This document shows positions 1 through 51,516 of a stretch of DNA of 64,000 bases, piece by piece. The position numbers were made by a program, and so were the translations under genes. Origin of the DNA: Selaginella moellendorffii (taxonomy: Eukaryota; Plantae; Lycopodiophyta); the NCBI RefSeq assembly GCF_000143415.4, contig NW_003314323.1, positions 996,499-1,060,498 on the forward strand, written 5' to 3'. The notes beneath the pieces were generated by a model, which saw nothing but the letters and a program-made list of their open reading frames with translations, was not told the origin of the DNA and searched no databases. The first letter of the stretch is position 1, and each line of letters opens with the position of its first letter.

Positions 1-979
1 TCCGACCGTTATTTTGCTCCAAGATTCTACAGTTTGGTGTGCATTGACCTTTCCATTGACACTGCAAATGGACACCACAATCAGATGCGGGATCACAAGA
101 AACCAACTTCACTAACTCTAGTTTCACCAAGATCTACGTAAGGAGTTATGAAATGAAAGGACCCTCTCTATTGAAATGTGTTTATGGTCCTAGGGGCATT
201 GTGACATATCCTTTGATATCTGGGCAAATGTTGTAAGAGGCAGATACCGAGCAGATGTATCTCAGGCTAGCGAAGGGGACAAACGAAAGTTAGCTATAAA
301 CATGACGGGATGCAAATAGATTACTAGGCTGGTCCTGCGAAAATCAAAAACCATAATTGAAAACATTGAAAATGCAAAAAGAAAGGTTTATAATATTTTA
401 TAATTTTAAGCAACCAAAGGAATGTAAGTAGGGCATGTGTTTGTAAGTTTAAAAATGCCTCAACCACTTAAATTCCCAAGTAAATAAAGCTGTTTCTATT
501 TTTGGTACAGGTAAACTTTATAGCGTGTGGGCTCATGCAATTTTGAACCCAAAAATGCACCAAAAAATGCTCGACTAGCATTATTCTTTGAATGGCGTGT
601 GGCCTTATATTGCCATAAATGGACGTACACACACAGCATAATTATTCCTTTACACGGCGAATAATCTTGGTGCGGATCGCTGACATGGCATAGTAAAGTT
701 CGAATCACTGACATGGCACAGCTGGATCGAGGCAAGGACATGATGTGACAAAGTTCAACCTCCGACAGCAAAGTCTAGAAGCTACTCAGTTTGAAATTTG
801 TCAGAGGAATCATAAGATCTAGTTTGTCAGAGGATTTGATGTGACGTTCAAGCGTGTGTTATTTTTGAATTCTCGAACTCATTCCTAGGTCTATCATTTT
901 TGTGCGCCGTGTTCTTAGTTCCGCTGAGCGCAGTGAGCGTTGCTTGTGTAAGCGGCATTGTGAGCTGTGGTTTATGCGT

Positions 980-1112
980 CTACGAGCGGTTGCGGCATTG
1001 CGAGCGCTATTGCGAGCGGCAGTTTATGCGAGTGGCAGTTTGTGCGAGCGGCGCTACGAGCAGTTGCGGTGTTGCGAGCGGCACTACGAGTAGTTGCGGT
1101 GTTGCGAGCGGC
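980..1112 (+). repeat. CpG-rich 30-bp tandem repeat upstream of transposase (copy A)
   Basis: Repeats of TACGAG(C/T)AGTTGCGGTGTTGCGAGCGGC(A/G)C plus shorter TGCGAGCGG units. Confidence 0.85.
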
Positions 1113-1478
1113 ACTATCTTTGGTGTGGCTACCGCTTCCTCTTGATATTCGGCATTTGTGCTTCCTGGTATGTTCACCATGGAATGGCTTAGGACCACAT
1201 TTAGAAATGGCATGAGGCCACATGCCATCTTGGGCCCTTGCAATTTCATGGCTAGCGTATTGTCATGTATGTTTTTACTTGCCTCCAGCTGTGTGTATAT
1301 CAAGATGGCATGAGGCCTCATGCCAATTTTGTGAATGCGAAATTTCACGTGGGTGTCAATAGCATGTTTGAATAATGGCATGTGGCCTCATGCTATTGAG
1401 GTTGTTTGGTATGTTATGATTTAGGCCATTCTCCAATCATTTTTTGTATGGTTTTAACTTCTTTTCTGCACTTTCAGA

Positions 1479-4400
1479 ATGGCCTTCAGGGTTGGGGAAA
1501 AGGTTTACATTTTGAATGGTGGGAAGAGAGTTGCAAAAGGGACCCTTGTGTCTATGGATCGGAACTTTGTTATACACTGTCAAAGGCTTGGGGAAGGCAA
1601 TGCTGCTGTATCAGTAGAGACTGTCTTCGATGGGAATGTGGTCGCTATTGAACGAGGAGAGATGGTCGTCGGGGTAAATGTTGTTGTTGCCTTGAAAAAT
1701 CTTCAGAAGAAAGCAAATGTTGGGGACAGCGCAAGTGCGACGCATGTTCCCTCCGTGGATCTTAAGAACCGTGCTACATGGATTCAGGCGAAGGTGTTTC
1801 TAAACAACCCCGAGGGGGAGGTGGTAGCTGAGGGCTTAGCCACAGTTGTCGATCCAAGAGATGCGGTTGCTAATCAAGAATTGGGCTGGGATGATATTGG
1901 AGTTGTGATTTTAGAGGTTGTTGACACAGAAGAAAACAGTCTGACTATTGGAAGCATTGTGCGGTGGAAATTGAGGCACTTAGTGTTTGAGAATGTGAAG
2001 GATTCACAATCAAACACCACTACAATTGATGACAGAACATCTCTTCATGGGAAAAGAAAGTACACCTTCCTAAAGCGCAGCCAAAGGGATCTGAGCAACG
2101 AACCGAAAAGGCAGAAAATGGCGATGGAGGTTCGAATGGTCTCGACAGTTGCTTGTTGCAAGAGGAGGTGCTGTCAACATGCTGATTGGGATGCTATTGA
2201 AGAGGAGAGAGCAAGATACAAGACATTGTCCTGGAAGGCAGCTCGCAATTTTGTGTATGAGGCATTACGGTCATCTGTTGATGCTTCAGAACATCAGGTG
2301 GGGGGCATGGTCTTCCAGAGGGGTTTGGTCTGCATGAAGGCATGGAGAATCATTTATGGAGTCCCTCGAACCACATTCTACAGAATCAAAACTGAGTTCG
2401 AGGAACAAAGGGTTCAACAGGCAGTCCATGGGAACGACGGTACGCACAAAACCAGGGGTCATGTTGTATATGGAGAGGCAATCTTCAAGAGGTTTGTCGA
2501 GATATGTAGCGAGCAGCAACCACATAAAACCCGCCTCTTGGAAGATGGAACACGAGACACCCAACGAGTTCTCCCTTCCATGTATACCAAGGGGGCCATA
2601 TTGGAAGATGTGAATCGGGAACTCCAGAGTAATGGCTACAGGAAGTTGAGCCAATCTAGATTTAGTAGATTGTGGAGCAACAGGTTCAGGGATGTGAGTA
2701 TAGGAAAGTACTCCAGCTTTTCAAAGTGTGACGAGTGCACTGCTATCAAAATGGCTTTGTCGAAGAACTCTTGCAGCGCTCAAGAGCGAGAGACGTTGGT
2801 TAGAAGGCGGCTCGACCACAACATCGAGCAGAGAAGCTGCAGGACTGCATATTATCATAACAGGATTCTCTCCATGGAGAGACCTGACTCTTACCTCTGC
2901 ATCATCCACGACAAAATGGACCAGAAAAAGACGTGCTTACCTCGACTCAATCCTGCCCCCAAGGCAATCTCTTCATCCATGCAGCTGTCTGTGTCTCTGT
3001 TTGGCATAATCGCTCATGGGCATGGTGCCCAGAACTATGGGAACTTCTTTGTACCTCTATGGGGTGGCGGGGGTGCAAACATGATGATTGCGTCCCTAGC
3101 AAAACACTTAAGGTCTCTGCAAAGTGCGCAGACTGAGCTGAACGGCCAACCCTTGCATAAGGCCCTTGTCGATTGAACCCCATACAGGGTTCAGCTGGAG
3201 GAGGAGCAAAGGCTTGCAGTATCGCGTGGGGCCCCATGCCATCCCAGTGAATATGTTGGCCGTCAGATTGTAGGGTTATCACGTGAGGCCTCATGCCATT
3301 CCGACGAGGCTGGTCGCCCGGTGAATGCACAGCCTCATCCAAACGAAGCAGAATCTCAAGGAAGTTCTTGCGGCCGATGTGGCCTTCCACCCCATCTTCT
3401 GCTCCAAACAGACAATGCTGGCAGTGAGAACAAAAACATGTACGTCTTTGCGTACTTGGCGATGCTTGTTGCCAAAGGCATATTTGAAACGGTTACACTT
3501 GGCTTTCTCATGGTTGGGCACACTCATGAAGACGTCGATGCCATGTTCAGTCACCTAGCAGAGTCCCTCCGGCGATCCAATGTCCTCACCCTCCCACAAC
3601 TCTACGATGAATTCCAAAATTGCATCAAAGGCACTGTTGAAGCTGCACTTCTGACAGAGGTTCCAGACTTTAAGGGGTTTGTAAGAGGCTACATCAGGGA
3701 CGGATCCGAAACGCTGATTGGCCACTCCAAGCCTCTTCAGTTTCATTTCAGCATGTGTGACGGTGCTCCAGTGATGAGGTACAAGATGAGAGAATGGGAC
3801 ACAGTGTGGCTGCCAGTGGACGGCATTGAACTCTTCAAGAGAGATCCCATAACTGGGGAACCTATGATTCCTTAGGGTTCCCCACGGCCGATGCACCCGG
3901 ATGGACTCAAAGACTAGGAAAGTATAGTGGCCGGGATTAGACAGCATATTGCCTTCTGGAAGAGGGGGTTGGTGTTTGGTGGAGAATCCTATTTTCAGAG
4001 GTGCAAGCCTTTGCTCGAATACTGGGAGAAGATTATATCTGCTATCCAAAATGGGCCGGTTGTATATGAAGAATTGGAAGAGTCCTTTTGGCCAGAACCC
4101 AGAGCACCAGATAGTAGCGGAACAATGTCGTCTGGAAATGCAGTGACAGATAACGATGTTGAGGATCACTATTGTGGGCCGAGGAACAAGAAGCCGGATT
4201 CAGCATTCAATCCAGTACAGGTCTGCAAAGGAATGGTCGTGCTTGTCAGACCCAGTAATAAAAAACAAATGATATGGGTGGGGCGCTACATCACTGATGC
4301 AGAGGAGGACGCGGAAACTAACTCCTTCAATGTAACTGTGGAGTGGTTCAAGCCAAGTTCCGGATATACGAAGGATTGCCTAGAAAAGAGATGGGTGCTG

Positions 4401-4620
4401 AATCCAAGGGATCCCAGCATGAGCATATCGGTGGATAATGTTGTGCATGGTTGGATGCGGAAGCAGAGTGCCACCATCACCTTGCCAGACCATGCAAGAG
4501 ATGCAGCAAGAGCATTCATAACCCGGGTTCAAGGTGAGATTCATTAATATTCCTTTACTAAGTTTCTAATGTATTTTATTTCAAGGTGAACAATCCGAAT
4601 CTGAATCAGAGGAGGCCTGA
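1479..4620 (+). pseudogene. DDE transposase (DUF7869/Sola1-like), copy A, with three in-frame stops
   Basis: Same-frame ORFs 1479-3176, 3321-3875 and 3927-4547. Motifs HDKMD, QTDN..ENKN, FLMVGHTHEDVD. Stops TGA 3174 and TAG ~3915 read CGA and CAG in copy B; TAG 3873 is shared. Probable last intron 4534-4585 and terminal exon GEQSESESEEA*. Confidence 0.85.
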
Positions 4621-5732
4621 TATAGTGTGTGAGGTAAAACAAAGATGATGTGACATATGCATTTACCAATCACACGTGCATAAATCTAATAATATGGCGT
4701 GTGGCCCATATTAATGGCACATAAACCCATATTGTGGGCTTATGTACTTTATGTACCATCATTCCCTTGCAGCGTGTGTGTTGGTTTCCTTTTATAACAC
4801 AACGAACTCCATATTTTAGGGTGAAGAGCGTTCTCATGGCAAGCACAAAATCTGTAAGTGAGGCAGAAAAGGAGACGGAGAAGGAGATAGGTGAAGATGT
4901 AGAATATATAAGTCTTCCAAACTCCCCGTACTATACTCCAGGTGATCATTTTTCTGAACAAACGGCAATATTAACAACTATCGAGAACGCCCCAGTAACG
5001 TCAGAGACAACAATCCAAAGCAAAACAACTGACCCAGAGAAGGATGATAGTACCGCTGAGAGTACCAAAAAGGAGGTGTCCACTAGCGCTTAGGCTTATA
5101 ATGGCGTGTGCCCTCATGCCATTTACTTGATCACCAAATACCCTTTTCCCTTTGCACTAGTATATCTTAATACCGGTCTGAGAAATAGAATGGCATGTGC
5201 CCTCAGGCCTTTTACTAAATCACCTTTGAAAGAAATGCAAGCCTCTATGTCGTAAAAAAAAGGTACTAGAGAAATTCCTTAATAATATGAATGTTATTTA
5301 GTTTCATGAAAATACACTAAGGGTGGTCAAATGAGTTAAATGACTTCTCCAGACTAGCAATGCCTCTTGCTACACCTTCACAATTAGATTCGTTAGAAAA
5401 AGATAACATTGAATAATATCTAAATGTTCTCACCATTAAGTGATATGTCTGGCTAATAGGAATGACGTTCATCTTGGAAAGCTCACCACACGCTTAATGA
5501 ACAAACAAATAGTGTGTGCGCGCATGCCATCGCTCTTCTTTAGCTTCAGATTCGGCTTGTTCACCTTGACAATGAGATTTATTATACAACCAGATGGACT
5601 CAATCTGGACATAAAGTCACCGCGCTAGTCACCATGCCCCAGATATGTCTAGCCCCTGGACAAAAAACATATAATTTCACGTCATTTTCAAATACTTAAA
5701 AATTTGTACCTAGTCCCATTTTACTGAATAAA

Positions 5733-5756
5733 TCCCACTTTAACGAAATAGAGCTT
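5733..5756. repeat. Terminal inverted repeat of copy A (transposase-side end)
   Basis: 21-bp core identical to 23819-23839 and to the reverse complement of 10526-10546; followed by CTT and then CTTC. Confidence 0.9.
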
Positions 5757-6343
5757 CTTCGCTATCATGCCCTTTGTGTTAGTCTCATTTCAGTCCTAAA
5801 TGCTATTTATAGAAAGTGTCTAGATTCGCTCATTTGGCATCTTTACGGAATGTAGAGGTCGGCCTGAACACAATGGTGTTTGTCCCGTGTCCAAATTTGC
5901 AATTTAGCACCATTCCATATTTAGTAAGTTTTGAGCTTGTCCTAGAGACTAACTCTTGGTACTAAGGGAGGCTTGGGGTGAAAGCCCAAAGCGTGTGTTC
6001 CTCAAGGGGGGGGGGGCTATGGGGGTTCCAAATGTATAGTAGGGATAGTGGTTGGAATGCATATCTGATTACCTGAGACATTAGTTTGGCTTTTGCTGGG
6101 CTATGTCGCTCTTTGTTCTGCGTCTGGCTTAGGTCTAAGCCAAAGCTCCATGCTGCTCTAGTTGGTGGAGTACCCTCCTCCTCGCGTTAGACCACCAGTA
6201 TGCCAAAATTGTGCCAGACTCTATCTGACACCATTTTGCGTGTAGGTGCTAGATACGGGGAGCTGGTGCTCGTGGGATTGTACCGAACCCTCGTTTGTAA
6301 TGCAATGGGCTTGGAGTTTGGCTCCAAATTCATGTGCACTACA
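5757..6343 (+). mobile_element. Displaced distal part of the 3' LTR of the Gypsy element at 23843-30608
   Basis: Homologous to the reverse complement of 29691-30275; ends ...CACTACA followed by TAACC, matching the GGTTA flank at 30609-30613. Confidence 0.88.
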
Positions 6344-9274: not shown

Positions 9275-10493
9275 TCTCAGAGACTAACTCTTAGTATTAA
9301 GGGAGGCTTGCGGTGAAAGCCCAAAACGTGCGTTCCTCAAGAAGGAGGGGGGGGCCTATGAGGGGTTCCAAATGTATAATAGGGATAGTGGTTGGAATGC
9401 ATGTTTGACCACTTAAGACATTAGTTTGGCTCCTGCTGGGCTATGTCACTCTTTGTTCTCCATCTGGCTTGGGTTTAAACTTAAGCTCCATGCTGCTTTA
9501 GTTGGTGGGGTATCCACCTCCTCGCGTTAGGCCACCGATATGCCAAAATTGTGCCAAACTCCGTCTGACACCATTTTGCATGCAAGCACTAAATATGGGG
9601 AGCTGGTGCTTGTGGGATTGTATTAGACCCTTGTTTCGTAGTGCAATGGGTTTGGAGTTCGGCTCCAAATTCAGGTGCACTACAACTAGGACTAGCACAT
9701 AAAACGAAGCCAAACGGAGTTTGGTGCTATTTCAATATACCGGTGGCTTAATACGAGGATATAGGTACTCCACCAGTTAGTATAGTGTGGAACTTGGGCT
9801 TAAACCCAAGCTAGATGCAGAATTAGGACAAACACACAAGCAAGAGTTAGATTATGCCTTAGGTTGGTCAACTATACCTAACATGGCCACTATCCCTATT
9901 ATACATTTTGAAACCCCCTATAACCCCCCCCCCCCCCTCCCCTTGAGGAACACATGCTTTTTAGCTGGTTGGTCTCTAAGACAACTCTAAGACAAGCTTC
10001 TAAGACAAGCTTGAAACTTACTAAATATGAAATGTCCTTAAATTGCGAATTTGAATATGGGACGAACACCATTATGTTCAAGACAATCTTTACGTTCTAT
10101 AAATATGCTAAATGAGCAAATCTAGACACTTTCCATAAATAGCATTTGGGACTAAAATGAGACTAACACAAAAAGCATGATAGCGAGGGTGTTTAGCAGA
10201 CATAGTAAACTATCATCTAGCAATATTGAGGGACTATTCTCAATACACAAAGGTTCTTGTCACTAGCCAGTGCAAAACACAACGAGATGGGAACTCTTTA
10301 CCAGGCTAAGTATGCTTAGCTAATAATATGTAAAAATTCTGTCCTTATACTCGTTCGGTCTAAGTACACTCGAAATGCCTAATTAACTCCACTAGCACAA
10401 GAGGGACCTCCTGCCATCGTGATAATAAAGAAAGAGTATCCGTAAGGATTAGCTGACAAGTAACTTTTGATACCCGAAGTCACATTTGTGACA
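7865..10493 (-). mobile_element. Minus-strand LTR interrupted by a plus-strand solo LTR and a tandem duplication
   Basis: Starts TGTCACAAATGTGACTTCGGG on the minus strand at 10493; sequence before 8031/8771 continues at 9685. Confidence 0.75.
8771..9684 (+). mobile_element. Solo LTR
   Basis: TG...CA termini (TGTCGCAAAT...GCACTACA); flanks GCTAG / ACTAG form a 4/5 TSD. Confidence 0.8.
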
Positions 10494-11658
10494 ATTAACA
10501 TGCTTGAGAGTTGTGGACTTGAATGCTCTATTTCGTTAAAGTGGGATTTATTCAGTAAAATGGGACTAGGTACAAATTTTCAAGTATTTGAAAATGACGT
10601 GAAATTATATGTTTTTTGTCCAGGGGCTAGACATATCTGGGGCATGGTGACTAGCGCGGTGACTTTATGTCCAGACTGAGTCCATCTGGTTGTATAATAA
10701 ATCTCATTGTCAAGGTGAACAAGCCGAATCTGAAGCTAAAGAAGAGCGATGGCATGCGCGCACACACTATTTGTTTGTTCATTGAGCGTGTGGTGAGCTT
10801 TCCAAGATGAACGTCATTCCTATTAGCCAAACATATCACTTAATGGTGAGAACATTTAGATATTATTCAATGTTATCTTTTTCTAACGAATCTAATTGTG
10901 AAGGTGTAGCAAGAGGCATTGCTAGTCTGGAGAAGTCATTTAACTCATTTGACCACCCTTAGTGTATTTTCATGAAACTAAATAACATTCATATTATTAA
11001 GGAATTTCTCTAGTACCTTTTTTTTACGACATAGAGGCTTGCATTTCTTTCAAAGGTGATTTAGTAAAAGGCCTGAGGGCACATGCCATTCTATTTCTCA
11101 GACCGGTATTAAGATATACTAGTGCAAAGGGAAAAAGGTATTTGGTGATCAAGTAAATGGCATGAGGGCACACGCCATTATAAGCCTAAGCACTAGTGGA
11201 CACCTCCTTTTTGGTACTCTCAGCGGTACTATCATCCTTCTCCGGGTCAGTTGTTTTGCTTTGGATTGTTGTCTCTGACATTACTGGGGCGTTCTCGATA
11301 GTTGTTAATATTGCCGTTTGTTCAGAAAAATGATCACCTGGAGTATAGTACGGGGAGTTTGGAAGACTTATATATTCTACATCTTCACCTATCTCCTTCT
11401 CCGTCTCCTTTTCTGCCTCACTTACAGATTTTGTGCTTGCCATGAGAACGCTCTTCACCCTAAAATATGGAGTTCGTTGTGTTATAAAAGGAAACCAACA
11501 CACACGCTGCAAGGGAATGATGGTACATAAAGTACGTAAGCCCACAATATGGGTTTATGTGCCATTAATATGGGCCACACGCCATATTATTAGATTTATG
11601 CACGTGTGATTGGTAAATGCATATGTCACATCATCTTTGTTTTACCTCACACACTATA

Positions 11659-14600
11659 TCAGGCCTCCTTTGATTCAGATTCGGATTGTTCACCTTGAAA
11701 TAAAATACATTAGAAACTTAGTAAAGGAATATTAATGAATCTCACCTTGAACCCGGGTTATGAATGCTCTTGCTGCATCTCTTGCATGGTCTGGCAAGGT
11801 GATGGTGGCACTCTGCTTCCGCATCCAACCATGCACAACATTATCCACCGATATGCTCATGCTGGGATCCCTTGGATTCAGCACCCATCTCTTTTCTAGG
11901 CAATCCTTCGTATATCCGGAACTTGGCTTGAACCACTCCACAGTTACATTGAAGGAGTTAGTTTCCACGTCCTCCTCTGCATCAGTGATGTAGCGCCCCA
12001 CCCATATCATTTGTTTTTTATTACTGGGTCTGACAAGCATGACCATTCCTTTGCAGACCTGTACTGGATTGAATGCTGAATCCGGCTTCTTGTTCCTCGG
12101 CCCACAATAGTGATCCTCAACATCGTTATCTGTCACTGCATTTCCAGACGACATTATTCCGCTACTATCTGGTGCTCTGGGTTCTGGCCAAAAGGACTCT
12201 TCCAATTCTTCATATACAACCGGCCCATTTTGGATAGCAGATATAATCTTCTCCCAGTATTCGAGCAAAGGCTTGCACCTCTGAAAATAGGATTCTCCAC
12301 CAAACACCAACCCCCTCTTCCAGAAGGCAATATGCTGTCTAATCCCGGCCACTATACTTTCCTGGTCTTTGAGTCCATCCGGGTGCATCGGCCGTGGGGA
12401 ACCCTAAGGAATCATAGGTTCCCCAGTTATGGGATCTCTCTTGAAGAGTTCAATGCCGTCCACTGGCAGCCACACTGTGTCCCATTCTCTCATCTTGTAC
12501 CTCATCACTGGAGCACCGTCACACATGCTGAAATGAAACTGAAGAGGCTTGGAGTGGCCAATCAGCGTTTCGGATCCGTCCCTGATGTAGCCTCTTACAA
12601 ACCCCTTAAAGTCTGGAACCTCTGTCAGAAGTGCAGCTTCAACAGTGCCTTTGATGCAATTTTGGAATTCATTGTAGAGTTGTGGGAGGGTGAGGACATT
12701 GGATCGCCGGAGGGACTCTGCCAGGTGACTGAACATGGCATCGACGTCTTCATGAGTGTGCCCAACCATGAGAAAGCCAAGTGTAACCGTTTCAAATATG
12801 CCTTTGGCAACAAGCATCGCCAAGTACGCGAAGACGTACATGTTTTTGTTCTCACTGCCAGCATTGTCTGTTTGGAGCAGAAGATGGGGTGGAAGGCCAC
12901 ATCGGCCGCAAGAACTTCCTTGAGATTCTGCTTCGTTTGGATGAGGCTGTGCATTCACCGGGCGACCAGCCTCGTCGGAATGGCATGAGGCCTCACGTGA
13001 TAACCCTACAATCTGACGGCCAACATATTCACTGGGATGGCATGGGGCCCCACGCGATACTGCAAGCCTTTGCTCCTCCTCCAGCTGAACCCTGTATGGG
13101 GTTCGATCGACAAGGGCCTTATGCAAGGGTTGGCCGTTCAGCTCAGTCTGCGCACTTTGCAGAGACCTTAAGTGTTTTGCTAGGGACGCAATCATCATGT
13201 TTGCACCCCCGCCACTCCATAGAGGTACAAAGAAGTTCCAATAGTTCTGGGCACCATGCCCATGAGCGATTATGCCAAACAGAGACACAGGCAGCTGCAT
13301 GGATAAAGAGATTGCCTTGGGGGCAGGATTGAGTCGAGGTAAGCACGTCTTTTTCTGGTCCATTTTGTCGTGGATGATGCAGAGGTAAGAGTCAGGTCTC
13401 TCCATGGAGAGAATCCTGTTATGATAATATGCAGTCCTGCAGCTTCTCTGCTCGATGTTGTGGTCGAGCCGCCTTCTAACCAACGTCTCTCGCTCTTGAG
13501 CGCTGCAAGAGTTCTTCGACAAAGCCATTTTGATAGCAGTGCACTCGTCACACTTTGAAAAGCTGGAGTACTTTCCTATACTCACATCCCTGAACCTGTT
13601 GCTCCACAATCTACTAAATCTAGATTGGCTCAACTTCCTGTAGCCATTACTCTGGAGTTCCCGATTCACATCTTCCAATATGGCCCCCTTGGTATACATG
13701 GAAGGGAGAACTCGTTGGGTGTCTCGTGTTCCATCTTCCAAGAGGCGGGTTTTATGTGGTTGCTGCTCGCTACATATCTCGACAAACCTCTTGAAGATTG
13801 CCTCTCCATATACAACATGACCCCTGGTTTTGTGCGTACCGTCGTTCCCATGGACTGCCTGTTGAACCCTTTGTTCCTCGAACTCAGTTTTGATTCTGTA
13901 GAATGTGGTTCGAGGGACTCCATAAATGATTCTCCATGCCTTCATGCAGACCAAACCCCTCTGGAAGACCATGCCCCCCACCTGATGTTCTGAAGCATCA
14001 ACAGATGACCGTAATGCCTCATACACAAAATTGCGAGCTGCCTTCCAGGACAATGTCTTGTATCTTGCTCTCTCCTCTTCAATAGCATCCCAATCAGCAT
14101 GTTGACAGCACCTCCTCTTGCAACAAGCAACTGTCGAGACCATTCGAACCTCCATCGCCATTTTCTGCCTTTTCGGTTCGTTGCTCAGATCCCTTTGGCT
14201 GCGCTTTAGGAAGGTGTACTTTCTTTTCCCATGAAGAGATGTTCTGTCATCAGTTGTAGTGGTGTTTGATTGTGAATCCTTCACATTCTCAAACACTAAG
14301 TGCCTCAATTTCCACCGCACAATGCTTCCAATAGTTAGACTGTTTTCTTCTGTGTCAACAACCTCTAAAATCACAACTCCAATATCATCCCAGCCCAATT
14401 CTTGATTAGCAACCGAATCTCTTGGATCGACAACTGTGGCTAAGCCCTCAGCTACCACCTCCCCCTCGGGGTTGTTTAGAAACACGTTCGCCTGAATCCA
14501 TGTAGCACGGTTCTTAAGATCCACGGAGGGAACATGCGTCGCACTTGCGCTGTCCCCAACATCTGCTTTCTTCTGAAGATTTTTCAAGGCAACAACAACA

Positions 14601-14800
14601 TTTACCCCGACGACCATCTCTCCTCGTTCAATAGCGACCACATTCCCATCGAAGACAGTCTCTACTGATACAGCAGCATTGCCTTCCCCAAGCCTTTGAC
14701 AGTGTATAACAAAGTTCCGATCCATAGACACAAGGGTCCCTTTTGCAACTCTCTTCCCACCATTCAAAATGTAAACCTTTTCCCCAACCCTGAAGGCCAT
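11659..14800 (-). pseudogene. DDE transposase (DUF7869/Sola1-like) with two N-terminal Tnp1/En-Spm-like barrel repeats, Cys-rich region and C-terminal SH3/BAH-like barrel; one in-frame TAG
   Basis: 798-aa ORF 12404-14800 continues in frame past TAG into 11732-12388. Motifs CCKRRCC, KCDEC, HDKMD, DN..ENKN, GHTHEDVD. Two VAxG...LG...V repeats at the N-terminus. Superfamily assignment is by motif resemblance. Confidence 0.85.
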
Positions 14801-15166
14801 TCTGAAAGTGCAGAAAAGAAGTTAAGACCGTACAAAAAATGATTGGAGAATGGCCTAAATCATAACATACCAAACAACCTCAATAGCATGAGGCCACATG
14901 CCATTATTCAAACATGCTATTGACACCCACGTGAAATTTTGCATTCACAAAATTGGCATGAGGCCTCATGCCATCTTGATATACACACAGCTGCAGGCAA
15001 GTAAAAACATACATGACAATATGCTAGCCATGAAATTGCAAGGGCCCAAGATGGCATGTGGCCTCATGCCATTTCTAAATGTGGTCTTAAGCCATTCCAT
15101 GGTGAACATACCAGGAAGCACAAGTGCCGAATATCAAGAGGAAGCGATAGCCACACCAAAGACAGT

Positions 15167-15300
15167 GCCGCTCGCAACACCGCAACTACTCGTAGCGCCG
15201 CTCGCAACACCGCAACTGCTCGTAGCGCCGCTCGCACAAACTGCCACTCGCATAAACTGCCGCTCGCAATAGCGCTCGCAATGCCGCAACCGCTCGTAGA
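15167..15300 (-). repeat. CpG-rich 30-bp tandem repeat in transposase 5' leader (copy B)
   Basis: GCCGCTCGCAACACCGCAACT(A/G)CTCGTAGC repeated about 2.4 times plus degenerate CGCTCGCA units. Confidence 0.85.
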
Positions 15301-15669
15301 CGCATAAACCACAGCTCACAATGCCGCTTACACAAGCAGCGCTCACTGCGCTCAGCGGAACCAAGAACACGGCGCACAAAAATGATAGACCTAAGAATGA
15401 GTTCGAGAATTCAAAAATAACACACGCTTGAATGTCACATCAAATCCTCTGACAAACCAGATCTTATGACTCCTCTGACAAATTTCAAACTGAGTAGCTT
15501 CTAGACTTTGCTGTCGGAGGTTGAACTTTGTCACATCATGTCCTTGCCTCGATCCAGCTGTGCCATGTCAGTGATTCGAACTTTGCCATGCCATGTCAGC
15601 GATCCGCGCCAAGATTATTCGCCATGTAAAGGAATAATTATGCTCTGTGTGTACGTCCATTTATGGCAA

Positions 15670-16990
15670 TATAAGGCCACACGCCATTCAAAGAATAATG
15701 CTAGTCGAGCATTTTTTGGTGCATTTTTGGGTTCAAAATTGCATGAGCCCACACGCTATAAAGTTTACCTGTACCAAAATAGAAATAGCTTTATTTACTT
15801 GGGAATTTAAGTGGTTGAGGCATTTTTAAACTTACAAACACATGCCCTACTTACATTCCTTTGGTTGCTTAAAATTCAAAAATATTATAAACCTTTCTTT
15901 TTGCATTTTCAATGTTTTCAATTATGGTTTTTGATTTTCGCAGGACCAGCCTAGTAATCTATTTGCATCCCGTCATGTTTATAGCTAGCTTTCGTTTGTC
16001 CCTTTCGCTAGCCTGAGATACATCTGCTCGGCATCTGCCTCTTACAGCATTTGCCCAGAAAGGGCATCTTTCTTCACGCAGCATTTGCCACATGTTTAGG
16101 GTTTAGGGTTTAGGGTTTAGCAATTCAGTAGCTTGATAAACATGCAAATACAGAACTTGATGCAAAATCCTTTGATATGTCACAATGCCTTTAGGACCAT
16201 AAACACATTTCAATAGAGAGGGTCCTTTCATTTCATAGCTCTTTACGTAGATCTTGGTGAAACCAGAGTTAATGAAGTTAGTTTCTTGTGATCTCGCATC
16301 TGATTGTGATGTCCCTTTGCAGTGTCGATGGAAAGGTCAATGCACACCAAACTGTAAAATCTTGGAGCAAAATAACGGTCGGATCTATAGCAAATGCCCC
16401 TGAAACATTGTAAGGCTCGTGTGGTCTCATGTGGTGTCCGATCGAGATGCTTCTTTGCAGGGTCATCAAGAAAGACATTGTATACCATTCTGTAAAATCT
16501 AGTTGCGATCTAACGGTTGGATCTCCAGAAAACTCAAAAAAATCTCGCGCATGTCAGAATATCCTAGGAATATACTCCTATGTGCCCCTGAAAATGGCAT
16601 GCGGCCCCACGCCATTCAAGAGATAACGCTAGATGACGCCGAGAATTTTTTGGTGCATTTTTTGGGTTCAAAATTGCATGAGCCCACACGCTATAAAGTT
16701 TATCTTTCCCAAATAGAGAAAAGTTTATCTGTGTCATGTGAGGTAGTTACAGTCCTTTGTGCTCGGCATCTGCCTCTTGCAGCATTTGCACTGAAAGGGA
16801 ATTTTTCTCCATTCAGCATTTGGCCCTCAAAATGGCATGCGCCCACACGCCATTCAAGGAATAACGCCACAGGACGCCTGGATTTTTGGGTTTAAAATGT
16901 TTAGGGTTTTTTGGGTTTTTTCAAAATATTTTGGGTCCAACGTTTTTTGGGTTTCTTTGGTTCAAAATTGCATGAGCCCACACGCTATAA
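15670..16990 (+). repeat. Three dispersed ~100-150 bp direct repeats, each with two 22-bp palindrome copies, between the divergent genes
   Basis: CACGCCATTCAA...TTCAAAATTGCATGAGCCCACACGCTATAA recurs at ~15680-15760, ~16608-16697 and ~16846-16990. Confidence 0.8.
16095..16120 (+). repeat. Short plant telomere-type repeat (TTTAGGG)3TTTAG
   Basis: Read directly; absent from copy A, which has a deletion here. Confidence 0.9.
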
Positions 16991-17335
16991 TATTGATTTG
17001 AGAGAAAAATAGAAACAGATAGAATTTCTTTATTTAGCTGAACATCTGCCATTTTTGGAAATACAAGATGCTTTGGAATATCCAATCATGCATGGTATAA
17101 ATATAGCGAGGGTATTAAATGATATCCCAATCATGATCTTTCTTTTGGATTTCGCGTGCATGCAGTCCGAGGAATGATGACGTTGCGGATTTCTTTTGGA
17201 TTTTGCGTGCTTGCATGCGCACGGCAATCCAGAAATTAATGGTGGCGCCCAAGTCCGAGGAATGATGACGTGGCGGGATTACCAACCGTTGTGACATTTC
17301 GTGCGTGTGAGGTTAGATTTTGCATTTTGCTTCGT

Positions 17336-17612
17336 ACTCGCGCTCTCACACTCGCGCTCGCGCTCGCATCACACTCGCGCTCGCGCTCGCGCTCGCATCA
17401 CACTCGCGCTCGCGCTCGCGCTCGCATCACACTCGCGCTCGCGCTCGCATCACACTCGCGCTCGCGCTCGCATCACACTCGCGCTCCCGCTCGCATCGCG
17501 CTCCCACTCGCGATCACGCTCACTTCTCTACAGGTTTCTCGTGTGCATCGGCGTCCACTCGCGCTTGCATCACACTCGCGCTCGCATCGCACTCGTGTGC
17601 ATCGGCGTCCAC
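17336..17612 (+). repeat. CpG-rich minisatellite (CTCGCG)n / CATCACA-CTCGCG units upstream of the cargo gene
   Basis: Read directly; explains the low-complexity ORFs at 17270-17828. Confidence 0.9.
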
Positions 17613-17821
17613 TTCAAGACACACCCAGTTTGTAACTTCGCCGCCAACTCCGCCGCCCACTCCGCCACCCACACGCAGCCCACTTGGCGTCCCGGGAGAT
17701 TTCAGCGCCACTCTCCAACTGTAAGTGGCAGAGTAGCCTTGCTGCTACGATCCGCTGCACACACAGTGCACATTCGCCAGCGAGTCCGGCCTCGATTGTC
17801 ACGGCCTCCATTCGGCTTCAA

Positions 17822-20800
17822 ATGGTAAGTCTTTTAGGCCAAGTAGAAAATGGCATGAGGCCACATGCCATTCAGTAGCAACATTGGCATGCACCGATTG
17901 GGCTCTCGAGTGCAGTCCGGTTACAGATGGCGTGTAGCCTCATGCCATCTTAGGATGCAGCCTCAAGACATCTGATGCAGTGGTGAATGGCGTGTGGCCT
18001 CATATTATTTCCAGCTGCTAGCTTTTCATCTGTCAGCTCTAATTGTTGTGCATTTCTGAACAGGCGAGGAATTGCGTTCTTCTTCCAGCCACTGTCAATG
18101 TGGATGCAGAGAAGGGGGAGGAGCTCACCAGTTGGACTTTCGGGATGGAAGGCGAGGATCTGATGCTGTACAACACAGATGGTGGGAGAAAAGAATGCAT
18201 GGAGATCCTCATCCAAGTGACAGACACTCCATGCAGTTCCATGCAAGAATATGGACTGGCACTTGTGGTAGAGACAACATCCGCCTTCAAGATCCACCTT
18301 GCACATCCTAGCGGCTTCCCGGAGGGGGGCAGCGGCTATGAGGAATTCCTAGAGGGAGCTAGGGAGAGGTTGTCCAGGAGGCCCACAATTTCAAAGACGC
18401 TGCGGGTCTATGAAGATCACATGGAATCCACGGACCTCACCTACGGCGATGTTCAAAAACTATATTCCAACATTGAGCCGTTGAGAGTGCCTCCAGTTCG
18501 CGAAGCGAAGGGGAAGGGGGTCGATCTGGAAACTACCCCGAAGCTGAAAAGGGTGGTCAAGCTCAAGCCGACGTCCGACTCTGCTGCTCCAAAAAAGAAG
18601 CTACTCGGTGATGCCATTGCCTCGGGTTCGAACACTACACCCACCAAAAAGAAGAGCCGCAAAGAGTAGAAAGAGCAAGAAGAGGCAGCAAAAATCGTCG
18701 CAGATAATAGTACTTGTTACTATTTCAACAAAGTATATACAATCGACGTGAGCCGTATCGACATCCAAAGCAAATACAACCACAAGCTAGTATCTGATGA
18801 GTGGGTGGAGAAACTGAAGCAGAAGATGCTGGCAAGTCTAGTAACACCCGACATCGCAGACGTGATCCCCTACTACCAAACAATGAATGGCGAGACGAGG
18901 TTTCCAAACTTGATCAATAGGAAGGTGTTGGACGATCAGAACATCCGGTTCTATGCCGTCTCCGGGCAGCATTCTAGCTTGGCGATGCAAGAGATAGTTC
19001 TGGATATTATGGTGGGCGAGGAGGTGAAGAAAGTCTTCAAGACAAGAGTTGTCCGCCTGATAAAAGGCAACTCGCCCCTCCGATCTATCATATCCATCTC
19101 CCACGTGCAGAATGTCAAGCAAGAAACGTGCTACAAATCGGGTCTGCACGAGACATTGGCACGAACACGGAAGCTCTGGGTTCAACTGAAGAAGCCACAA
19201 AAACCAGGACAAGGACGTGCACTAGCAACTAGCGCCTGGCAGGTAAGCCTCGTTGCATGTGGCATAGCATGTGGCCTCACGCCATTTCCATTGCAGGAAT
19301 TCTTGAGTCTTCTCTCGAAAACACTGGGGGTCAATGACACACTCAACATCCATAACATTCTACTCGCGACAACAGTTGTTTTTGACAAATGGGTAGATGT
19401 GCTGAGGAGGTACCATGACGGGGAGTTGCTAAACTCAATGGGTGTGGAGGACGGCCGGAAGCCCAATGATTTGAAGCTCAACGCCTTGTGTTTCTCGCGG
19501 TCTCTAGACGACGACGACCTTCTGATAGTGGCTAATGCTCTTCTACGTGGTGAGGTAATCTTCAACAAGACCAAAATGACTCCCGGCCATATTGTGACAT
19601 ACGAGGACTTGTGCACGACTCTGAGAGCTCGTGCGCTATTGAAGGATTGGATCTTCGAGCAAGTGGCCGTGGAGAGGGTGAGCATCGACACCACGCAAGA
19701 GATGATGGAAGAGCTGGACTTGTCAAATGAAGACATCGACGAGTACGTGAAGGGGGCCCCCAAGTTCATCGATCTGCTGCGGGATGCCACGAAAAGTAAA
19801 GCTGAGAAGTTGGATTAGTATCCAAATTTCATTAAGAGGGATGTCGACCGCCGGCTTCAGAAACAACTCGACCCCGCAGCAGAGGCCTATCGAGAACCTT
19901 ACCGGGTATACGTGAATTCGGATGAGGATCAAAGGTGGAGGAGCATCGTTTCCTGCGGAGATGAGTAGGTCAAGAGCATCTTTTGTGTGATGGACTTCAC
20001 AAACGAAGAGATCACTCATGCAGACGAAGTCAGCTCCATCATTGACTTAATGGTGGGACTTGCGGAGGTGGAATCTTTAGTTCACTATATGATCTACGAC
20101 TCCGAATCCTATCACAAGTTCTGGAAGGCCTTGAACGAGGTGAAGGCTCGGTTGAAAGGCAAGGAGATGCGAGAGATCCATGGGATAATGGCTAAGAAGA
20201 AGATACTGACGAATGTCCGCATCTTCACACTCGCCCTTGTTATTGGTCCTGCAACAGAGTGGGACTGGAGTGACTTCCCAGCTTCGTTCGACAAGCCCGA
20301 TCGAATTGATCTGAGGGAGGTCAATTTACCCGTGCCTGAGGAACTGAAGACGGCTATGGAGCTTTCGAATCCAAAGAAAGCTCCAGGTGCAGCATGGGAA
20401 ATGCTCAGCTGAGTCTTCAACGCAATAGCGGGTGACACCAAGGGCAAATGCGTTGTCGAGTACAACTGCGGCGGACTATTCTTTCGAGCCGCACTACTCA
20501 AGGGTGTCCCGTGTGTTGCGGTGACAAACTCCATTGAAGAGGTGACTTCAATGGAGCATATAATTACAGTTGCCAAAGAAAAACAGTATCTTCTCTGCGA
20601 ACCTGGTGAGTACGCACTTTAAGTTTAAATATTATCTCACAAGCTCTGTATGCAGGAGCGTGGCCACCCCCAGATGCTGAAACGGCGTTAACAGCTACTG
20701 ATGTTAGGCCGAGCTCACAACCTGCACAAGGTAAGGTCACGTGAGGCCTCACGCCATTTTGATTATAGATTGTTGTGAATATTCAGACACGAGGACTAAA

Positions 20801-23379
20801 AAGCGCACTGGTGGCGCGTCGAAGAAGGACAAACAAACAAGCAATAGGAAAAAAGGAGGTACAAATTATATTTGCAATGGCGTGTGGTCTCATGCCATTC
20901 CTTGCAGGAGACACTTCTTCAAAGGCAAAACAGGCAAGCACCAGCCAAGCTCAAACTGACAGTGGTCATAAAAAGCGAAAGCACATTGGACAGTCGTCAG
21001 GATCAGAGGCGTTTGATTCGAAAAGGAAGAAGGGCAACGAAAAGATGATAGGTAATGCCTCGCGGTTATGGCGTGTGTGCTCATGCCATTCATTGCAGAT
21101 CAAGGGCTGAGTGAAAGGAGCCAGTCACCACCTCCTGACTCAGATTCCTATGGCGGACTCCCCTTCCCCAATCTCAATGGAGAGGTACAATGGATGAGGG
21201 ATGCTTTTCAAGTCAGGGCCACGTTTTTCTCATCTCGTCGTTTTCGAAGGGTGCAAGAACGTGCAGAAACCATGTTAAGACAGTCGGGTGAGGATACGGT
21301 CCTAGGTCAAGTACTGAAATAGGCTATGGATGTCTTGTATTTTGAGATGGAGACTCGGCCAGATGATTTTCCCAAGATGGTCCTTGAAAAACAAGCCATC
21401 CAGCCTGAGCAGCCTATGGAAGAAATGCAGGAGGGGGATGAGGAGCCAGAGAAAGATAATGAGCAGGAAGAGCAGAAGGACGAAGAGGAGGACAAAGAGG
21501 AGGAGGACGAAGAAGAGGAGGACGAAGAGGACTTGGATGGTCCTCACAATGGTGACGATCACAATAACGACGATGACGATGATGACGACGATGGCCAGCC
21601 TGAGGTGGCCAAAGAGCAGCGGAGGAAGGTCATACAAGACAAACCATCAGGTAAATAATAGTACATCCATTCCTAACCTTTTACCATTTCTAACATTGTC
21701 CATGTAGGTCGCAGAAGAAATGGTAAGTAGAGATTATTCAGTTGAATTAAGATACAAACTCTAGCCTTTAGTGTCGAGGAAGGATAGTGCCAAGCAAGGG
21801 TCGAAACGTATGTCCAATCCTTCAGAATCAGCAGTGCGCCCAATAGCAGTTGATGGTAAATACAGTATAGTCGATTCAATGTGCTAATGAGTTTGTTTTT
21901 AGTAGCCAGTAGGGAGGATACCATCTCAATCGAAGGGAGATATTTGGACATGCATATGGATCCGCTAGTGGACTCTACTTGCCTGCAAGAGTCATCAGAG
22001 CTGGTGGAGGCTACTATCCATATCAACGCCAAGCAAGCTGACCAGGCTCCACTTGATGCTGCCCATACCACTAAGTCAATCTTGTCCACGTATCCAACTG
22101 ACGGTGACCAGGCGCCATTGGACCCGCATAAGGCCGCCCCAGCCGCCGAGCCGGTCGTATCCTCATTTCCAACGGACTCAACGTGTGCCCAATCGTCTGA
22201 CTACGCGCCGTTGGAACCTCCCTACACCGCCCCTGCTGCCTATTCGGTCATGTCCACTTTGCCAACGGAGGCACCAGCTGAAATGGCGTGTGATCACACG
22301 CCATCGGAACCACCCCATGCCACTGTTGAGCCAGTTGTACCAGAGTCTACAGCTGAAATGGCATGTGCCCACATGCCATCGGATGCGATTGACCCCACAT
22401 TGCAGAGGAGAGTATTTCCGCCCTTCACGTTTCCTTGACCAAAACCCTCTGAACGACCATCGGGAGCACCATTCGCTAATATTGTAGATGGTAAAATTGA
22501 CTTGTACCATTTTTTATGCTGACGCATTTCATTTCAGAGTCACGGCGAAAGTACTGTATCGTTTTTGATCTGAATGGTGTCCTTTTCTCCCATGAGCGTG
22601 GCTCGTCCTCGAATGTCACTGCACCCTCCAAAGCCTGCAGTCGCAAGTTGGTCAAAAGAGACAGATTCACATTAATCACACGGGAGAAACTGCGGGATCT
22701 AATAATAACCATGCGACACTTAAAACAGAGGGCTGGGTTCAATTTGCAATTGGGAGTTTGGACATCCATGATGCGCCACAATGCATTAACGTTGCTACAG
22801 ATGATGCACGATCAGACGCGAGTAATATTACCATTTGACTTTCTCCTAACGCAGGAGGATTGCTTGACTATGGTCCATGTGAGGGGTAGCAAGCCCATCT
22901 TCGTCAAGCCAGAGGTTGTAGTGATGAACCGGACTGCTAGGTCAAGTGAAATCCTCATCATCGATGACTCGCCGATTAAAACTGCAGCGAACACGCACAC
23001 ATATGCAGTGCACCCCATCTCTTGCAGTATGGAAACTAGGGAGAAGAAACCGTATGTTCTGGGGGACCTTGCAAAACGGCTTGAAGCGATGGTGATAGAG
23101 AACCGGCCAGTCCAGGAGGTGGCTGCAGAAATCAACCAAATGGCAGATGGAACGGTATATCAGAAGCCATTTGATCGGACAGACACCAGTCATCATTTAT
23201 GGCATGTATATTGTCTAGCCAAGCACTATCCGCATCTCCATAATCTGCTCAACCGGATGGGTTCTTCGACCACTGAACATGAGCGTGGACGTATTAGAAA
23301 AGAGATGGCATTACTATTGGGTTTAAATCCTGATAGTGTGGAGAGTGATGAAATTCCAAGATTATTGTATAGGCGTTAG
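17822..23379 (+). pseudogene. Transposon cargo gene, multi-exon: ParB/Srx-like domain, degenerate DNA MTase-like fold, acidic/low-complexity region, FCP1/NIF-type HAD phosphatase-like domain
   Basis: ATG 17822 is followed by intron 17825-18063, which joins in frame to ARNCVLL. ORFs 18043, 18748 and 19987 share one frame and are broken only by single TAG/TGA codons. GT-AG introns at 19243-19296, 20606-20655, 20731-20786, 20859-20907, 21052-21098, 21651-21707 and 22491-22537; the last is phase-correct into ESRRKYCIVFDLNGVL. Exons between 21708 and 21905 are not fully resolved. Confidence 0.7.
22538..23379 (+). CDS. FCP1/NIF-family HAD phosphatase-like exon (intact reading frame)
   Basis: IVFDLNGVL (motif I variant), GVWTS, IFVKP, LIIDDSPIK. 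Confidence 0.8.
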
Positions 23380-23842
23380 AGGCAAAAAATAACAGTCTGA
23401 GATGGCATGTATTTATTTAAAAATGTAACTTATTATGGCATGGGGTTCCATGCCATTGTATTAATATTAAAAGACAATTCTTTGAGAGGATTTGCATTAT
23501 ACTAGAAGTGTTACAGCATGTTATTGGAAGTCTACGAAATTGTTTTATTAATAAGGGGAAAGTAAAGATTGAATGGGGACTTGGGCTCCACCTAGACTCG
23601 GAGCAACTAAGCCAATATTAAAAGGATAGAAAGAAATTGGACGACGATGACAAGGAGAAGAGAGAGGTGAAGCAGTGGCAGGAGGAGGAGAAGTGATTGA
23701 GTAGACATTTCCTTGTTTAAAATAAAATGGCATGTGCCTTAATGCAGTTGAATTTTGTTATATTTATATACTATATAAAGGTTTGGAAACCTTATTTTAC
23801 AAGTGGGATAATGACAATTCCCACTTTAACGAAATAGAGTTT

Positions 23843-26800
23843 GAAGGTGTTTGGCAAACATGGTAAGCTATCATCTAGCAAATATTGAGGGACTAGTCTC
23901 AATATCGCAGAGGTTCCTAACACTAGCAAGTGCAAGTCGGCATCTTGAGTTTCTCGTCACTATGTCAAGTATGCTTAACTTAATGACAACTTAGGATTTC
24001 CTTCCTTAGTGCCCTTCCGGTCTAAGTGCACATGTGCTGACCAGTTTCTCAACCAGCTTGGGTGGAGACCATAACGGGAACCAGCAGTACCAACCTCCTG
24101 CCGTCGTGGCAGTAAGGAGAGAGTGTCCATAAGGACTAGCCGACAAGTATCTTTTGATACCCGAAGTCACATTTGCAACACTCTCCCCCCCTTGGGGAAG
24201 ATCGACATCCTCATCGATGCATACTCGAGTCTAGCAAACCGTCAAGGAAACAACTCTGAAAGTTAACGGAAAGCACATTATGTGGGAAATGCACCGATTT
24301 AAATGAGTTATAGAATGACCTCTCCTCTACATCTAAAGACATTAAGACTCAGACACCCTCCGGCCGTCACCGACAAGGAAATGACTAACAAAGTTAGCCA
24401 CCCTTGCTGCTCCGAGTGCCACTCGGCTTACAAAGGAATGATACATCCCTACCTGTAGGGACATAGGGAGAAGGCCAGAGGCCCAACTGCCCCTGAGCAA
24501 GAAATCAACCCCACCGGGAAGATTTAGATAATTATTATAAACTGGCAGATTAAGTTGTTTACACGACCAAGCCCTTTTGCAAAAGTGAGTCATCAAAAGA
24601 GAGGCGGGGACTTGTGATCAGTCTACAATAGATATCCCCATGGTTATGGATTGGACCCATGCACCAAAGTGCCGAAGTCAGCCTGCCAAAATTGACCCAA
24701 GTACTAACAAACAAGAGAAACAACAGTTTGATTTATAAAAATATATTACTTTATTAATTTGCAAGATTTATTACAAGATTTACAAAAGCTAAGTTTTATT
24801 ATTATTCTCATACTGCGTGACAAGCTCACGAGCATGTGTAAGATTCTTAAGAGGTTCCCAAGTTGATTCACAAGATGGGTAACCTTTCCACTTAACAAGA
24901 TATTCCTTCGTACAACCACCACGTGTCTTATGAGACAAAAGGATAGCTTCAACCTCATACTCCAGTTCACTATCAATAACATTCAGAGCTGGAGGAACAT
25001 CCCTAGAGTGGCCAGGATCCTTATGATATGGGGCCAGTAAACTGACATGAAACACATCATGAAGGCTGGACATCGCTTGTGGAATATCCAACTGATAAGA
25101 TACATCACTAAGTCGTTTCAACACCCAATAGGGTTTAACATATCTCGGCAAGAGCTTCCGAGACAAAGAACCCTTAATGTTCAAGTTCCAGGAAGATAGC
25201 CACACCTGATCTCCCACTTGATAGGATACATCCCGACGATGCTGATCCTTATCACGTCGATACCTATCCTGAGCTTTGCCCATCGCCTTAGTAGCTCTAG
25301 ACCAACCTTGGCGTAGCTGCTCTACATAAGTCTCAACAGCTGGGACCAACATTTCGGACATTGGTTTTGGTACAATAATCTGTTGAGGGACCCCATGAGC
25401 ATTCCCTTGCAACATCTCCCATGGAGAACAGCCTATAGTGCTGTGAAATGTGTTATTATAACAGATTTTTATTGTGTCTAAATGCTCAACCCAGTCGCGT
25501 TGGTCCACTACGACATAGTACTGCAGATAATGCGCAACTTGAGCATTCACACGTTAAGTCTGCCCATCAGTCTGAGGGTGATAAGCCGTACTAAACTTCA
25601 ACTTGGTATCGAATAGCTGGAACAGTGTGCCCCAAAACTTCCCCGTAAACCTCGAATCCCTATCCAAGATCATCTCTTCGGGAACACCATGAACTTGCAC
25701 TACTTCATGGAAAAAGAGCTTTGCTGCTTGTTTCACATTTATTGTTCCCATAGTTGGAATGAAGTGTGCAATCTTCGACAACCGATCCACAACCACCATC
25801 AAAGTATCATAACCCTTAGACTTTGGCAAACAAGTGACAAAATCAAGTGTCACACTCTGAAATGGCCATGCTGGTGTTGGAATACACTGCAACTTTCTAG
25901 CTTGCTTCTCAGTTCTGCGCTTACATTGCTGGTATATAGGGCAGGAACAAACATAATCCGCTACATCACCTTCCATACCAGACCAGAAAAATCCCTTTTT
26001 CAATGAAGCCAGAGTCTTTCGCTTTCCACCATGTCCCACTGCCGGAACATCATGATGTTCCCGTAGAAATAATTGCTGAAGATCCTTAGAGGGAAGATAC
26101 AATTTTTGTTGCTTATAGAATATAAGCCCACCCCGAACTGAGAAGTGAAGCCTTGCATTAGTGCGACTAGCAACTTTCGCTACCAGGGCTCTGCTTCAAC
26201 AACCCCGCATGGCATAAGATTGCCTTTGCCAATGGATCACTTCCATATGAAGCCCGCACGTCCTCTAACTAGTCCAAACTGATTGCCGATATTGACCAGA
26301 ATTGAGCCTGACGACTCAATGCATTCGGAACAACATTGTCTTTACCAGGTTTATATATGATTTCAATATCATATCTAGCAAGCTTCTCTTGCCAACGAGC
26401 CTGCTTTGGCGTAAGCTTAGGCTGCGTAGCAAAGTAGCTCAGTGTGTTATTATCCATATAAACCTTGGTATGTCCACCCAAGTAGTGTCTCCAGTGTTCC
26501 AAGGCCAACACTATAGCAAACATCTCTTTCTCATGCGTTGGTCATCTTCGTTGGGTTTCATCCAATTTCTTGGAATAGAACGCAACGGGACAACCATGTC
26601 GCCTTAACGTAACACCAACCGCTTTGTCACAATCTTGCTGCAACACGGCACCAATAGCATAGCCAGATGCATCACAATGCACTTCAAAGGGTTTATCAAG
26701 ATCTGGGATCCTGAGAATAGGAACCGTAGTCAAGATCTCCTTCAATAGTACAAAAGCACATTCACAAGCTGGTGTCTAGTGAAACGGAATACTACTCTTT

Positions 26801-42836: not shown

Positions 42837-42966
42837 TTGTGTTTTTTATGAACCTAAAAATTTCCCTTGATTATTGAAATTTAATATAATTTTTATATAT
42901 AATTTTATATATATATATATATATTTCAATAATCAAGGGAAATTTTTAGGTTCATAAAAAACACAA
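42837..42966. repeat. Perfect 44-bp inverted repeat with AT-only loop
   Basis: 42837-42880 is the exact reverse complement of 42923-42966. Confidence 0.9.
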
Positions 42967-50704: not shown

Positions 50705-50744
50705 AAAAACAAATTCGATAGTGTTCACCTTGAAATAAAGTTTG

Positions 50745-51465: not shown

Positions 51466-51516
51466 AGCCAACGAGAATGAATTCAAATTTAGGGCTCTTT
51501 GCCTTCTCAACCATGA

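Follow-up and report, generated by a model that had tools for sequence, protein, structure and literature searches.

The element and its cargo gene

A stretch of 64,000 nt from Selaginella moellendorffii (NCBI RefSeq assembly GCF_000143415.4, contig NW_003314323.1, positions 996,499 to 1,060,498 of the forward strand) was analysed, which is called the window in the following. It contains a Sola-like DNA transposon with terminal inverted repeats (TIRs) and two divergent genes, one coding for a DUF7869 transposase and one for a large cargo protein. Copies of a 22-bp imperfect palindrome with the consensus ATGGCRTGNGNNCNCAYGCCAT are dispersed over this element, and they are about 20 times denser in its predicted introns than in its coding sequence. 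An earlier note on this DNA had listed eight introns in the cargo gene. All eight intervals are of the GT-AG type and chain in one frame up to intron 7, but two further introns (8 and 9) had been missed, which are needed to reach the exon with the NIF domain in frame. The cargo gene is now modelled as follows.

17822..23379, plus strand: cargo gene with 11 predicted exons and 10 introns, 4863 nt, 1620 amino acids; six premature stops in this copy
17825..18063, plus strand: predicted intron 1, phase 0; motifs at 17850, 17927 and 17987; separate CTAAT branch-like site at -22
19243..19296, plus strand: predicted intron 2, phase 0, 54 nt; motif at 19264 with its A at -18
20606..20655, plus strand: predicted intron 3, motif-free; CTCAC at -17
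20731..20786, plus strand: predicted intron 4, 56 nt; degenerate motif at 20736, close to the donor
20859..20907, plus strand: predicted intron 5, 49 nt; motif at 20877 with its A at -16; hairpin predicted in the RNA
21052..21098, plus strand: predicted intron 6, 47 nt; motif at 21068 with its A at -16; hairpin predicted in the RNA
21651..21707, plus strand: predicted intron 7, motif-free
21723..21771, plus strand: predicted intron 8, motif-free; added in this analysis
21856..21902, plus strand: predicted intron 9, motif-free; added in this analysis
22283..22379, plus strand: exonic motif pair (22283 and 22358, spacing 75 bp); the encoded protein is of low complexity here
22491..22537, plus strand: predicted intron 10, motif-free

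Introns 3 to 10, which rest on splice signals and reading frame, are all in phase 1 and thereby leave seven consecutive symmetric exons (20606-22537). At three of the six premature stops, contigs of the same family have C where this copy has T, so this cargo copy looks decayed by deamination.

The 22-bp repeats were found exactly where the earlier note had placed them, one in each of the small introns 2, 4, 5 and 6, of which they take up 39-47% (about 40% had been stated), and three in intron 1. They are imperfect palindromes, however, and the copies at 20736 and 17987 each deviate from the consensus at 3 positions, with Watson-Crick outer pairs in only 5/8 and 4/8 cases. Introns 3, 7 and 10 are indeed motif-free at up to 4 mismatches. 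Altogether the motif occurs in five of the ten cargo introns, and small introns with the motif (47-56 nt) and without it (47-57 nt) are equal in length.

Distribution and sequence of the palindromic motif

In the complete window 33 copies are present at up to 4 mismatches, all of them within 520-23748, and 24 lie inside the 13.3-kb transposon, where 200 dinucleotide shuffles gave a mean of 0.165 and a maximum of 2 copies. At the same threshold the 40 kb of the window beyond the element (23.8-64 kb) have none. The TIRs are devoid of the motif. Outside the cargo gene, the copies of the element are found in the following features.

11660..14800, minus strand: DUF7869 transposase gene (Pfam PF25273, E 2e-42)
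12980 and 13037, minus strand: in-frame exonic motif pair of the transposase gene, in a variable loop of the protein according to the alignment
14802..15111, minus strand: 5' intron predicted for the transposase gene; three motifs, at 14883, 14953 and 15051; its GT..AG ends just ahead of the ATG
15738..16988: five intergenic motif copies (15738, 16594, 16673, 16832, 16967), partly due to local duplications

Counted over the whole element on the basis of the predicted introns, there are 10 copies in 1059 bp of intron, 4 in 7951 bp of exon and 10 in 4285 bp of other non-coding DNA, corresponding to 9.4, 0.5 and 2.3 copies per kb. The comparison of introns and exons, which had been proposed as a check, gave the expected higher density in introns, with p=3e-7 for the element and p=1.4e-5 for the cargo gene alone; introns are also enriched compared to other non-coding DNA (p=0.002). 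Nevertheless, the motif is not simply an intron feature: besides the exonic pair of the cargo gene, 15 copies are located in other parts of the element; 20 of the 24 copies are non-coding and 14 are outside introns. The copies group into ten clusters with gaps of 687-1846 bp, a spacing more regular than random (p 0.011-0.018). Hence, the earlier idea that introns act as coding-neutral carriers, which keep binding sites spaced along the gene, agrees with the enrichment and the even spacing, but the introns would not be entirely neutral carriers, given the branch-point register seen in three of the four tiny introns (see below).

The half-sites are most conserved at T7 (48/48), G8 (47/48) and G10 (45/48). 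Position 9 is A or T and frequently unpaired with position 14 although G10 is kept, and R6 and Y17 vary independently of each other. Since bases rather than pairs are conserved, reading of the bases by a dimer fits better than a hairpin. The earlier statement that the introns share no other obvious sequence was confirmed: similarity between the flanks of the motif in introns 2, 5 and 6 scored 11-19, inside the range of 4-20.5 obtained against motif-free introns, and homology of these three introns outside the motif was rejected by this control. Rfam had no credible match for the palindrome, and neither the motif nor the transposase was found in the viral contigs searched.

Putative branch points and the age of intron 2

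Introns 2, 5 and 6 have a single yTnAy in the 40 nt before the acceptor, namely the CTCAY that forms part of the right arm of the motif, which puts the predicted branch A at -18, -16 and -16. Among the six motif-free small introns, five have a yTnAy whose A lies at -15 to -17. Under random placement, three of four small introns would be in this register with p=0.02 in a post hoc test. We infer that the right arm of the motif doubles as branch point in these three introns, because an intron of 47-54 nt barely fits a 22-bp site plus a branch point. As introns with and without the motif are equally long, such space limits can explain the register without any extra function. In intron 4 a possible earlier acceptor AG at 20768 would give a 38-nt intron with unchanged frame and the motif A at -18. 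In the RNA, a stem of 8 bp is predicted to cover the branch A of introns 5 and 6 (-14.5 and -16.2 kcal/mol, z -2.5 and -1.7), whereas for introns 2 and 4 the predicted folding is not stronger than that of shuffled sequences (z 0.45 and -0.40). Retention of intron 5 or 6 would shift the reading frame.

Intron 2 is the only cargo intron that can be read through without a stop or frame shift, and it was compared among relatives at the protein level. Annotated Riccia and Adiantum proteins align over its junction without its 18 residues. The anchor residue is found in 37 of 41 relatives, and 21 of these 37 have V at the homologous spot, 16 of them as VS; the latter represent one subfamily, are therefore non-independent, and mostly end shortly after VS. 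The protein P0112 continues with EF where the near-identical P0081 has VS and stops. Relatives at 20-30% identity have this position in common, and we read intron 2 as an old phase-0 intron on the strength of these alignments, which argues against the motif making introns.

The cargo protein

Three regions of the cargo protein were assigned.

18670..19242, plus strand: ParB/Srx-fold domain with SGQHS motif, in exon 2; AlphaFold2 model with a predicted local distance difference test score of 86.6
20410..20605, plus strand: end of the methyltransferase-like region, at the end of exon 3, with motif-I-like VVEYNCGG; aligns with Riccia P0047
22538..23379, plus strand: last exon with NIF (FCP1-like HAD) phosphatase-like domain, Pfam PF03031, E 5.6e-6

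The alignment-based structure model of exon 2 has the ParB/Srx nucleotide-binding fold. Foldseek returned matches to Noc/ParB; the model further matches PadC, KorB and sulfiredoxin. VIA gave Z 8.9 for KorB and, as the best value, 9.4 for PadC, with a root-mean-square deviation of 2.7 over 99 residues. Sequence searches of the Protein Data Bank (PDB), NCBIfam and PHROGs yielded no ParB or helix-turn-helix (HTH) match. Relatives of exon 2 number 14 by phmmer and 44 by profile, and homologs come from Riccia and Adiantum. Riccia P0047 has a sub-threshold N6_N4_Mtase match (E 2e-4), and its match to M.RsrI reaches only E 0.05. NIF was the sole Pfam match on the cargo pieces; it is present in 11 of 13 Adiantum homologs scanned, and the layout from ParB to NIF recurs in Adiantum. 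The order of domains would thus be a ParB/Srx fold, followed by a methyltransferase-like region and NIF. A review of eukaryotic adenine methylases mentions ParB-linked methylases, the cargo family not being among them in the accessible part of the text (PMC4738411).

Related elements and known systems

Metagenomes gave 409 confirmed loci with related transposases, the best 80 of which were inspected. In these 80, neither the motif at up to 3 mismatches nor a ParB match was detected. However, 12 of the 68 related loci of at least 4 kb contain a palindrome of their own in 5-17 copies, compared to 0-3 in shuffles, and several of these palindromes have a GGCCAC core resembling the motif of the window. 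In three of the loci (L009-L011) a divergent NIF gene is accompanied by the own motif in tandem array. These family-specific palindromes are supportive of a site read by an element-encoded protein, but they are not proof. Beside this, the array in L010 (5918-7105) consists of an 18-bp palindrome with a period of 24 bp and then about 50 bp, between the NIF gene and the transposase. In two intact relatives (L001, 641-1584; L003, 8730-9390), clusters of the own palindrome lie just upstream of the transposase and end near a likely splice acceptor.

The closest parallel is found in the VANC/VANDAL system of Arabidopsis. According to the part of Hosaka et al. 2017 available to us (PMC5735166), VANC21 removes methylation and binds its motif in VANDAL21, within introns as well as in the intergenic and terminal non-coding parts. 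Both systems are DNA transposons with an accessory gene and family-specific short non-coding motifs with tandem amplification, and in the window element 20 of 24 copies are non-coding while relatives have other palindromes. The VANC motifs are 8-9 bp long and non-palindromic, unlike the 22-bp palindrome described here, and binding and demethylation were demonstrated for VANC. The gene content differs as well, since the window element has a DUF7869 transposase and a cargo with ParB/Srx, methyltransferase-like and NIF domains. VANC-type proteins belong to Mutator-like elements, and the transposase of the window element and the sole Pfam match of its cargo, NIF, are of other types. With the bacterial ParB-parS, Noc-NBS and KorB systems (PDB 7ol9, 7bm8, 8qa8, 6ryk) the element shares the ParB/Srx fold and dispersed palindromes. 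It differs from them in that its cargo is a eukaryotic gene with predicted introns and is without the canonical CTP-box Arg, a detected HTH or a ParA. Moreover, the fold is also common to sulfiredoxin and free serine kinase, so the fold itself shows no function.

Possible roles of the palindrome

With some reserve, we favour the reading that the palindrome is a double-stranded DNA site for a dimer encoded by the element, comparable to VANC/VANDAL, with introns as tolerated slots. It is carried by results which were established directly, i.e. the count, positions and enrichment of the motif, the fold model of exon 2 and the family-specific palindromes in the relatives. As binder, the cargo protein is the tentative choice, and the transposase would be an unlikely one. 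The dimer would read two half-sites at palindromes along the whole element, and the ParB-fold cargo protein would coat the element in steps of 0.7-1.8 kb, as VANC coats VANDAL. Such a coat could protect the element without disturbing its genes, with anti-silencing as a first guess for the outcome. The introns would be older than the motif and later colonised by it, presumably since the genes offer no other free sequence. Without an intron available, the motif would be placed in frame in variable stretches of the proteins.

Several points weigh against this reading. No spliced junctions were seen in 7 RNA-labelled runs, three of them sampled at about 12%, which have next to no cover of the cargo gene; the few RNA reads and contigs on this gene are unspliced, several of them across the intron 1 acceptor, which is weak evidence against the introns being real. 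The fold is matched with moderate scores (Z 8-9.4, TM about 0.4). The CTP box of ParB proteins reads GxxR (GxxRxxA); the cargo family has G-Q-H-S-x-x-A (SGQHS) with G99, Q100, H101 and A105 conserved and the Arg replaced. Profile and atlas searches found no HTH, though a conserved helical stretch follows the ParB domain. Small introns taken alone are enriched over other non-coding DNA only at the borderline (p=0.054), and the tests of spacing and branch-point register, with p about 0.02, are post hoc. Furthermore, none of the 80 related loci combines a ParB cargo with the motif, and several loci with palindromes are without detected cargo. The related loci are also non-independent, tandem units contribute to some of their counts, and a control sequence containing repeated long terminal repeats (LTRs) likewise reached a score of 6.

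Among other explanations, a neutral by-product is quite unlikely in our view. The palindrome would spread by local duplication or conversion and persist, without function, where selection spares it; the intergenic copies do arise from visible local duplications, purifying selection alone predicts depletion in exons, and much of the motif variation resembles CpG decay. Four exonic copies kept in frame, the even spacing, the conserved core amid unrelated flanks and the repetition of the theme with other sequences in relatives are difficult to reconcile with it, and a plain 22-bp insertion is ruled out by motif introns being no longer than motif-free ones. Somewhat less probable still is a role at the RNA level, in which introns 5 and 6 have their branch point masked by a hairpin, which throttles splicing and switches between a short ParB-methyltransferase-like and a full NIF-bearing product. 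The stems over the branch A of these introns, the frame shift upon retention of either one and the branch-point register are as expected for it; introns 2 and 4, which fold like shuffles, the A-C mismatches on the sense strand and the many copies outside introns, a good part of them between the divergent genes, are not. The suggestion of the earlier note that the motif affects splicing thus stands as far as its position at the expected branch-point site in three of four tiny introns is concerned, but the motif is spread over the element and not bound to introns.

A host transcription or chromatin factor that turns the element on in some cell type would be in line with the clusters that lie between the promoters and in the first intron of either gene. 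It appears improbable, as no copy is found in the adjacent 40 kb of host and retrotransposon sequence, the sequence differs between related families, and sites are spread over the whole element. We give very little credit to an intron-generating process, another alternative in the earlier note, be it introner-like insertion or intronisation of a motif-bearing exon. It is true that the motif can provide a branch point 9-11 nt ahead of AG and that several short introns share sequence, as with Introners. However, the similarity in the window is a 22-bp interior piece, also found outside introns, and falls short of the splice sites, whereas similarity up to both splice boundaries defines Introners in the part of Gozashti et al. 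2022 consulted (PMC9860276). Intron 2, the position of which is shared with distant relatives, would predate the motif, intron lengths are equal with and without it, and half of the cargo introns are motif-free. Finally, the DNA-like run X2, which spans the element end to end at about 240-260 contig depth, showed no intron-skipping joint, and intron-less copies were not found at a 5% share; its indels in cargo exons measure 12 and 24 nt. The transposase exonic pair lies in a weak in-frame 90-nt GT..AG (12971-13060), which closes 9 nt past the motif and so has the same register, but it is one of many such GT..AG pairs, and one contig spans it unspliced.

Returning to the DNA-site reading, its most far-reaching version is a ParB/parS-like eukaryotic system in Sola-like transposons of seedless plants. 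The cargo would load at family palindromes and spread over 13 kb, its methyltransferase-like and NIF domains would counter silencing, and palindrome branch points would tune its own splicing. We regard this as unlikely. In the literature considered, sequence-specific self-protection of a transposon is well shown only for Arabidopsis VANDAL. A further case, from seedless plants and a different superfamily, would point to convergence and would supply natural pairs of protein and site with exchangeable specificity. If a DNA site also serves as branch point, this would be a compact dual coding in minimal introns.

The element type and a dispersed motif are probably already known. Sola1-1_PP, a long Physcomitrella Sola1 element described by Bao et al. 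2009, reportedly has a second gene ending with NIF and a repeated internal palindrome. To our knowledge, intron location, overlap with branch points and a ParB fold have not been described for it. Our literature search, which did not reach the 2009 Sola description and is therefore no proof of absence, found no account of palindromes in Sola introns, branch-point overlap, ParB cargo or family-specific palindromes. Physcomitrella Sola1 is listed in Table 1 of PMC9033089.

Ends of the element, insertion and surroundings

The remaining features of the element and its vicinity are the following.

1..5756: inverted second copy of the transposase half of the element, 99% identical, with nine motif copies
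10523..23842: Sola-like TIR DNA transposon, 13.3 kb, two divergent genes, 24-bp inverted termini
10523..10546, plus strand: left TIR
11694..11745, minus strand: predicted motif-free 52-nt intron of the transposase gene, close to its 3' end
23819..23842, minus strand: right TIR, followed by GAAG as inferred 4-bp target site duplication (TSD)

The 24-bp TIRs are present at three ends, 10523, 23842 and 5756. A comparison with seven empty LTR copies revealed a GAAG duplication common to the ends at 5756 and 23842, which represents one insertion only, and these two ends also share the two halves of one LTR. Because of this common duplication, the spacer 5757-10522 between the inverted 99%-identical copies appears to have been flipped, either in the genome by recombination between the copies or by assembly. 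Once the inverted spacer is accounted for, the short TIRs and the 4-bp TSD (GAAG, n=1) resemble Sola1. The AWWT target site given as a Sola1 hallmark in the available part of PMC3845634 differs from this sole inferred TSD.

In the transposase alignment D477, D644 and D684/D686 are invariant. At 11658-11666, family contigs of run X2 continue into sequence missing here, with a further motif-like copy, and at 14954-14974 another contig has the motif between flanks that are unrelated. Each of the two divergent genes is preceded by CG-rich tandem repeats (17340-17600 and 15170-15340). Ahead of the cargo ATG, a piece of 40 nt (17718-17757) matches a very abundant RNA, and RNA depth there stems from that other RNA. 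The piece also weakly matches the 3' end of eukaryotic large-subunit ribosomal RNA (Rfam positions 3338-3373, E 0.35) and may be a captured fragment of it.

The element is adjoined by a Ty3/gypsy retrotransposon with chromodomain on the minus strand (24789-29700), and numerous related LTR pieces occur from 5.7 to 42 kb of the window. Host genes for a B-lectin-like protein, a PPR protein and an M20 peptidase follow at 42933-57879.

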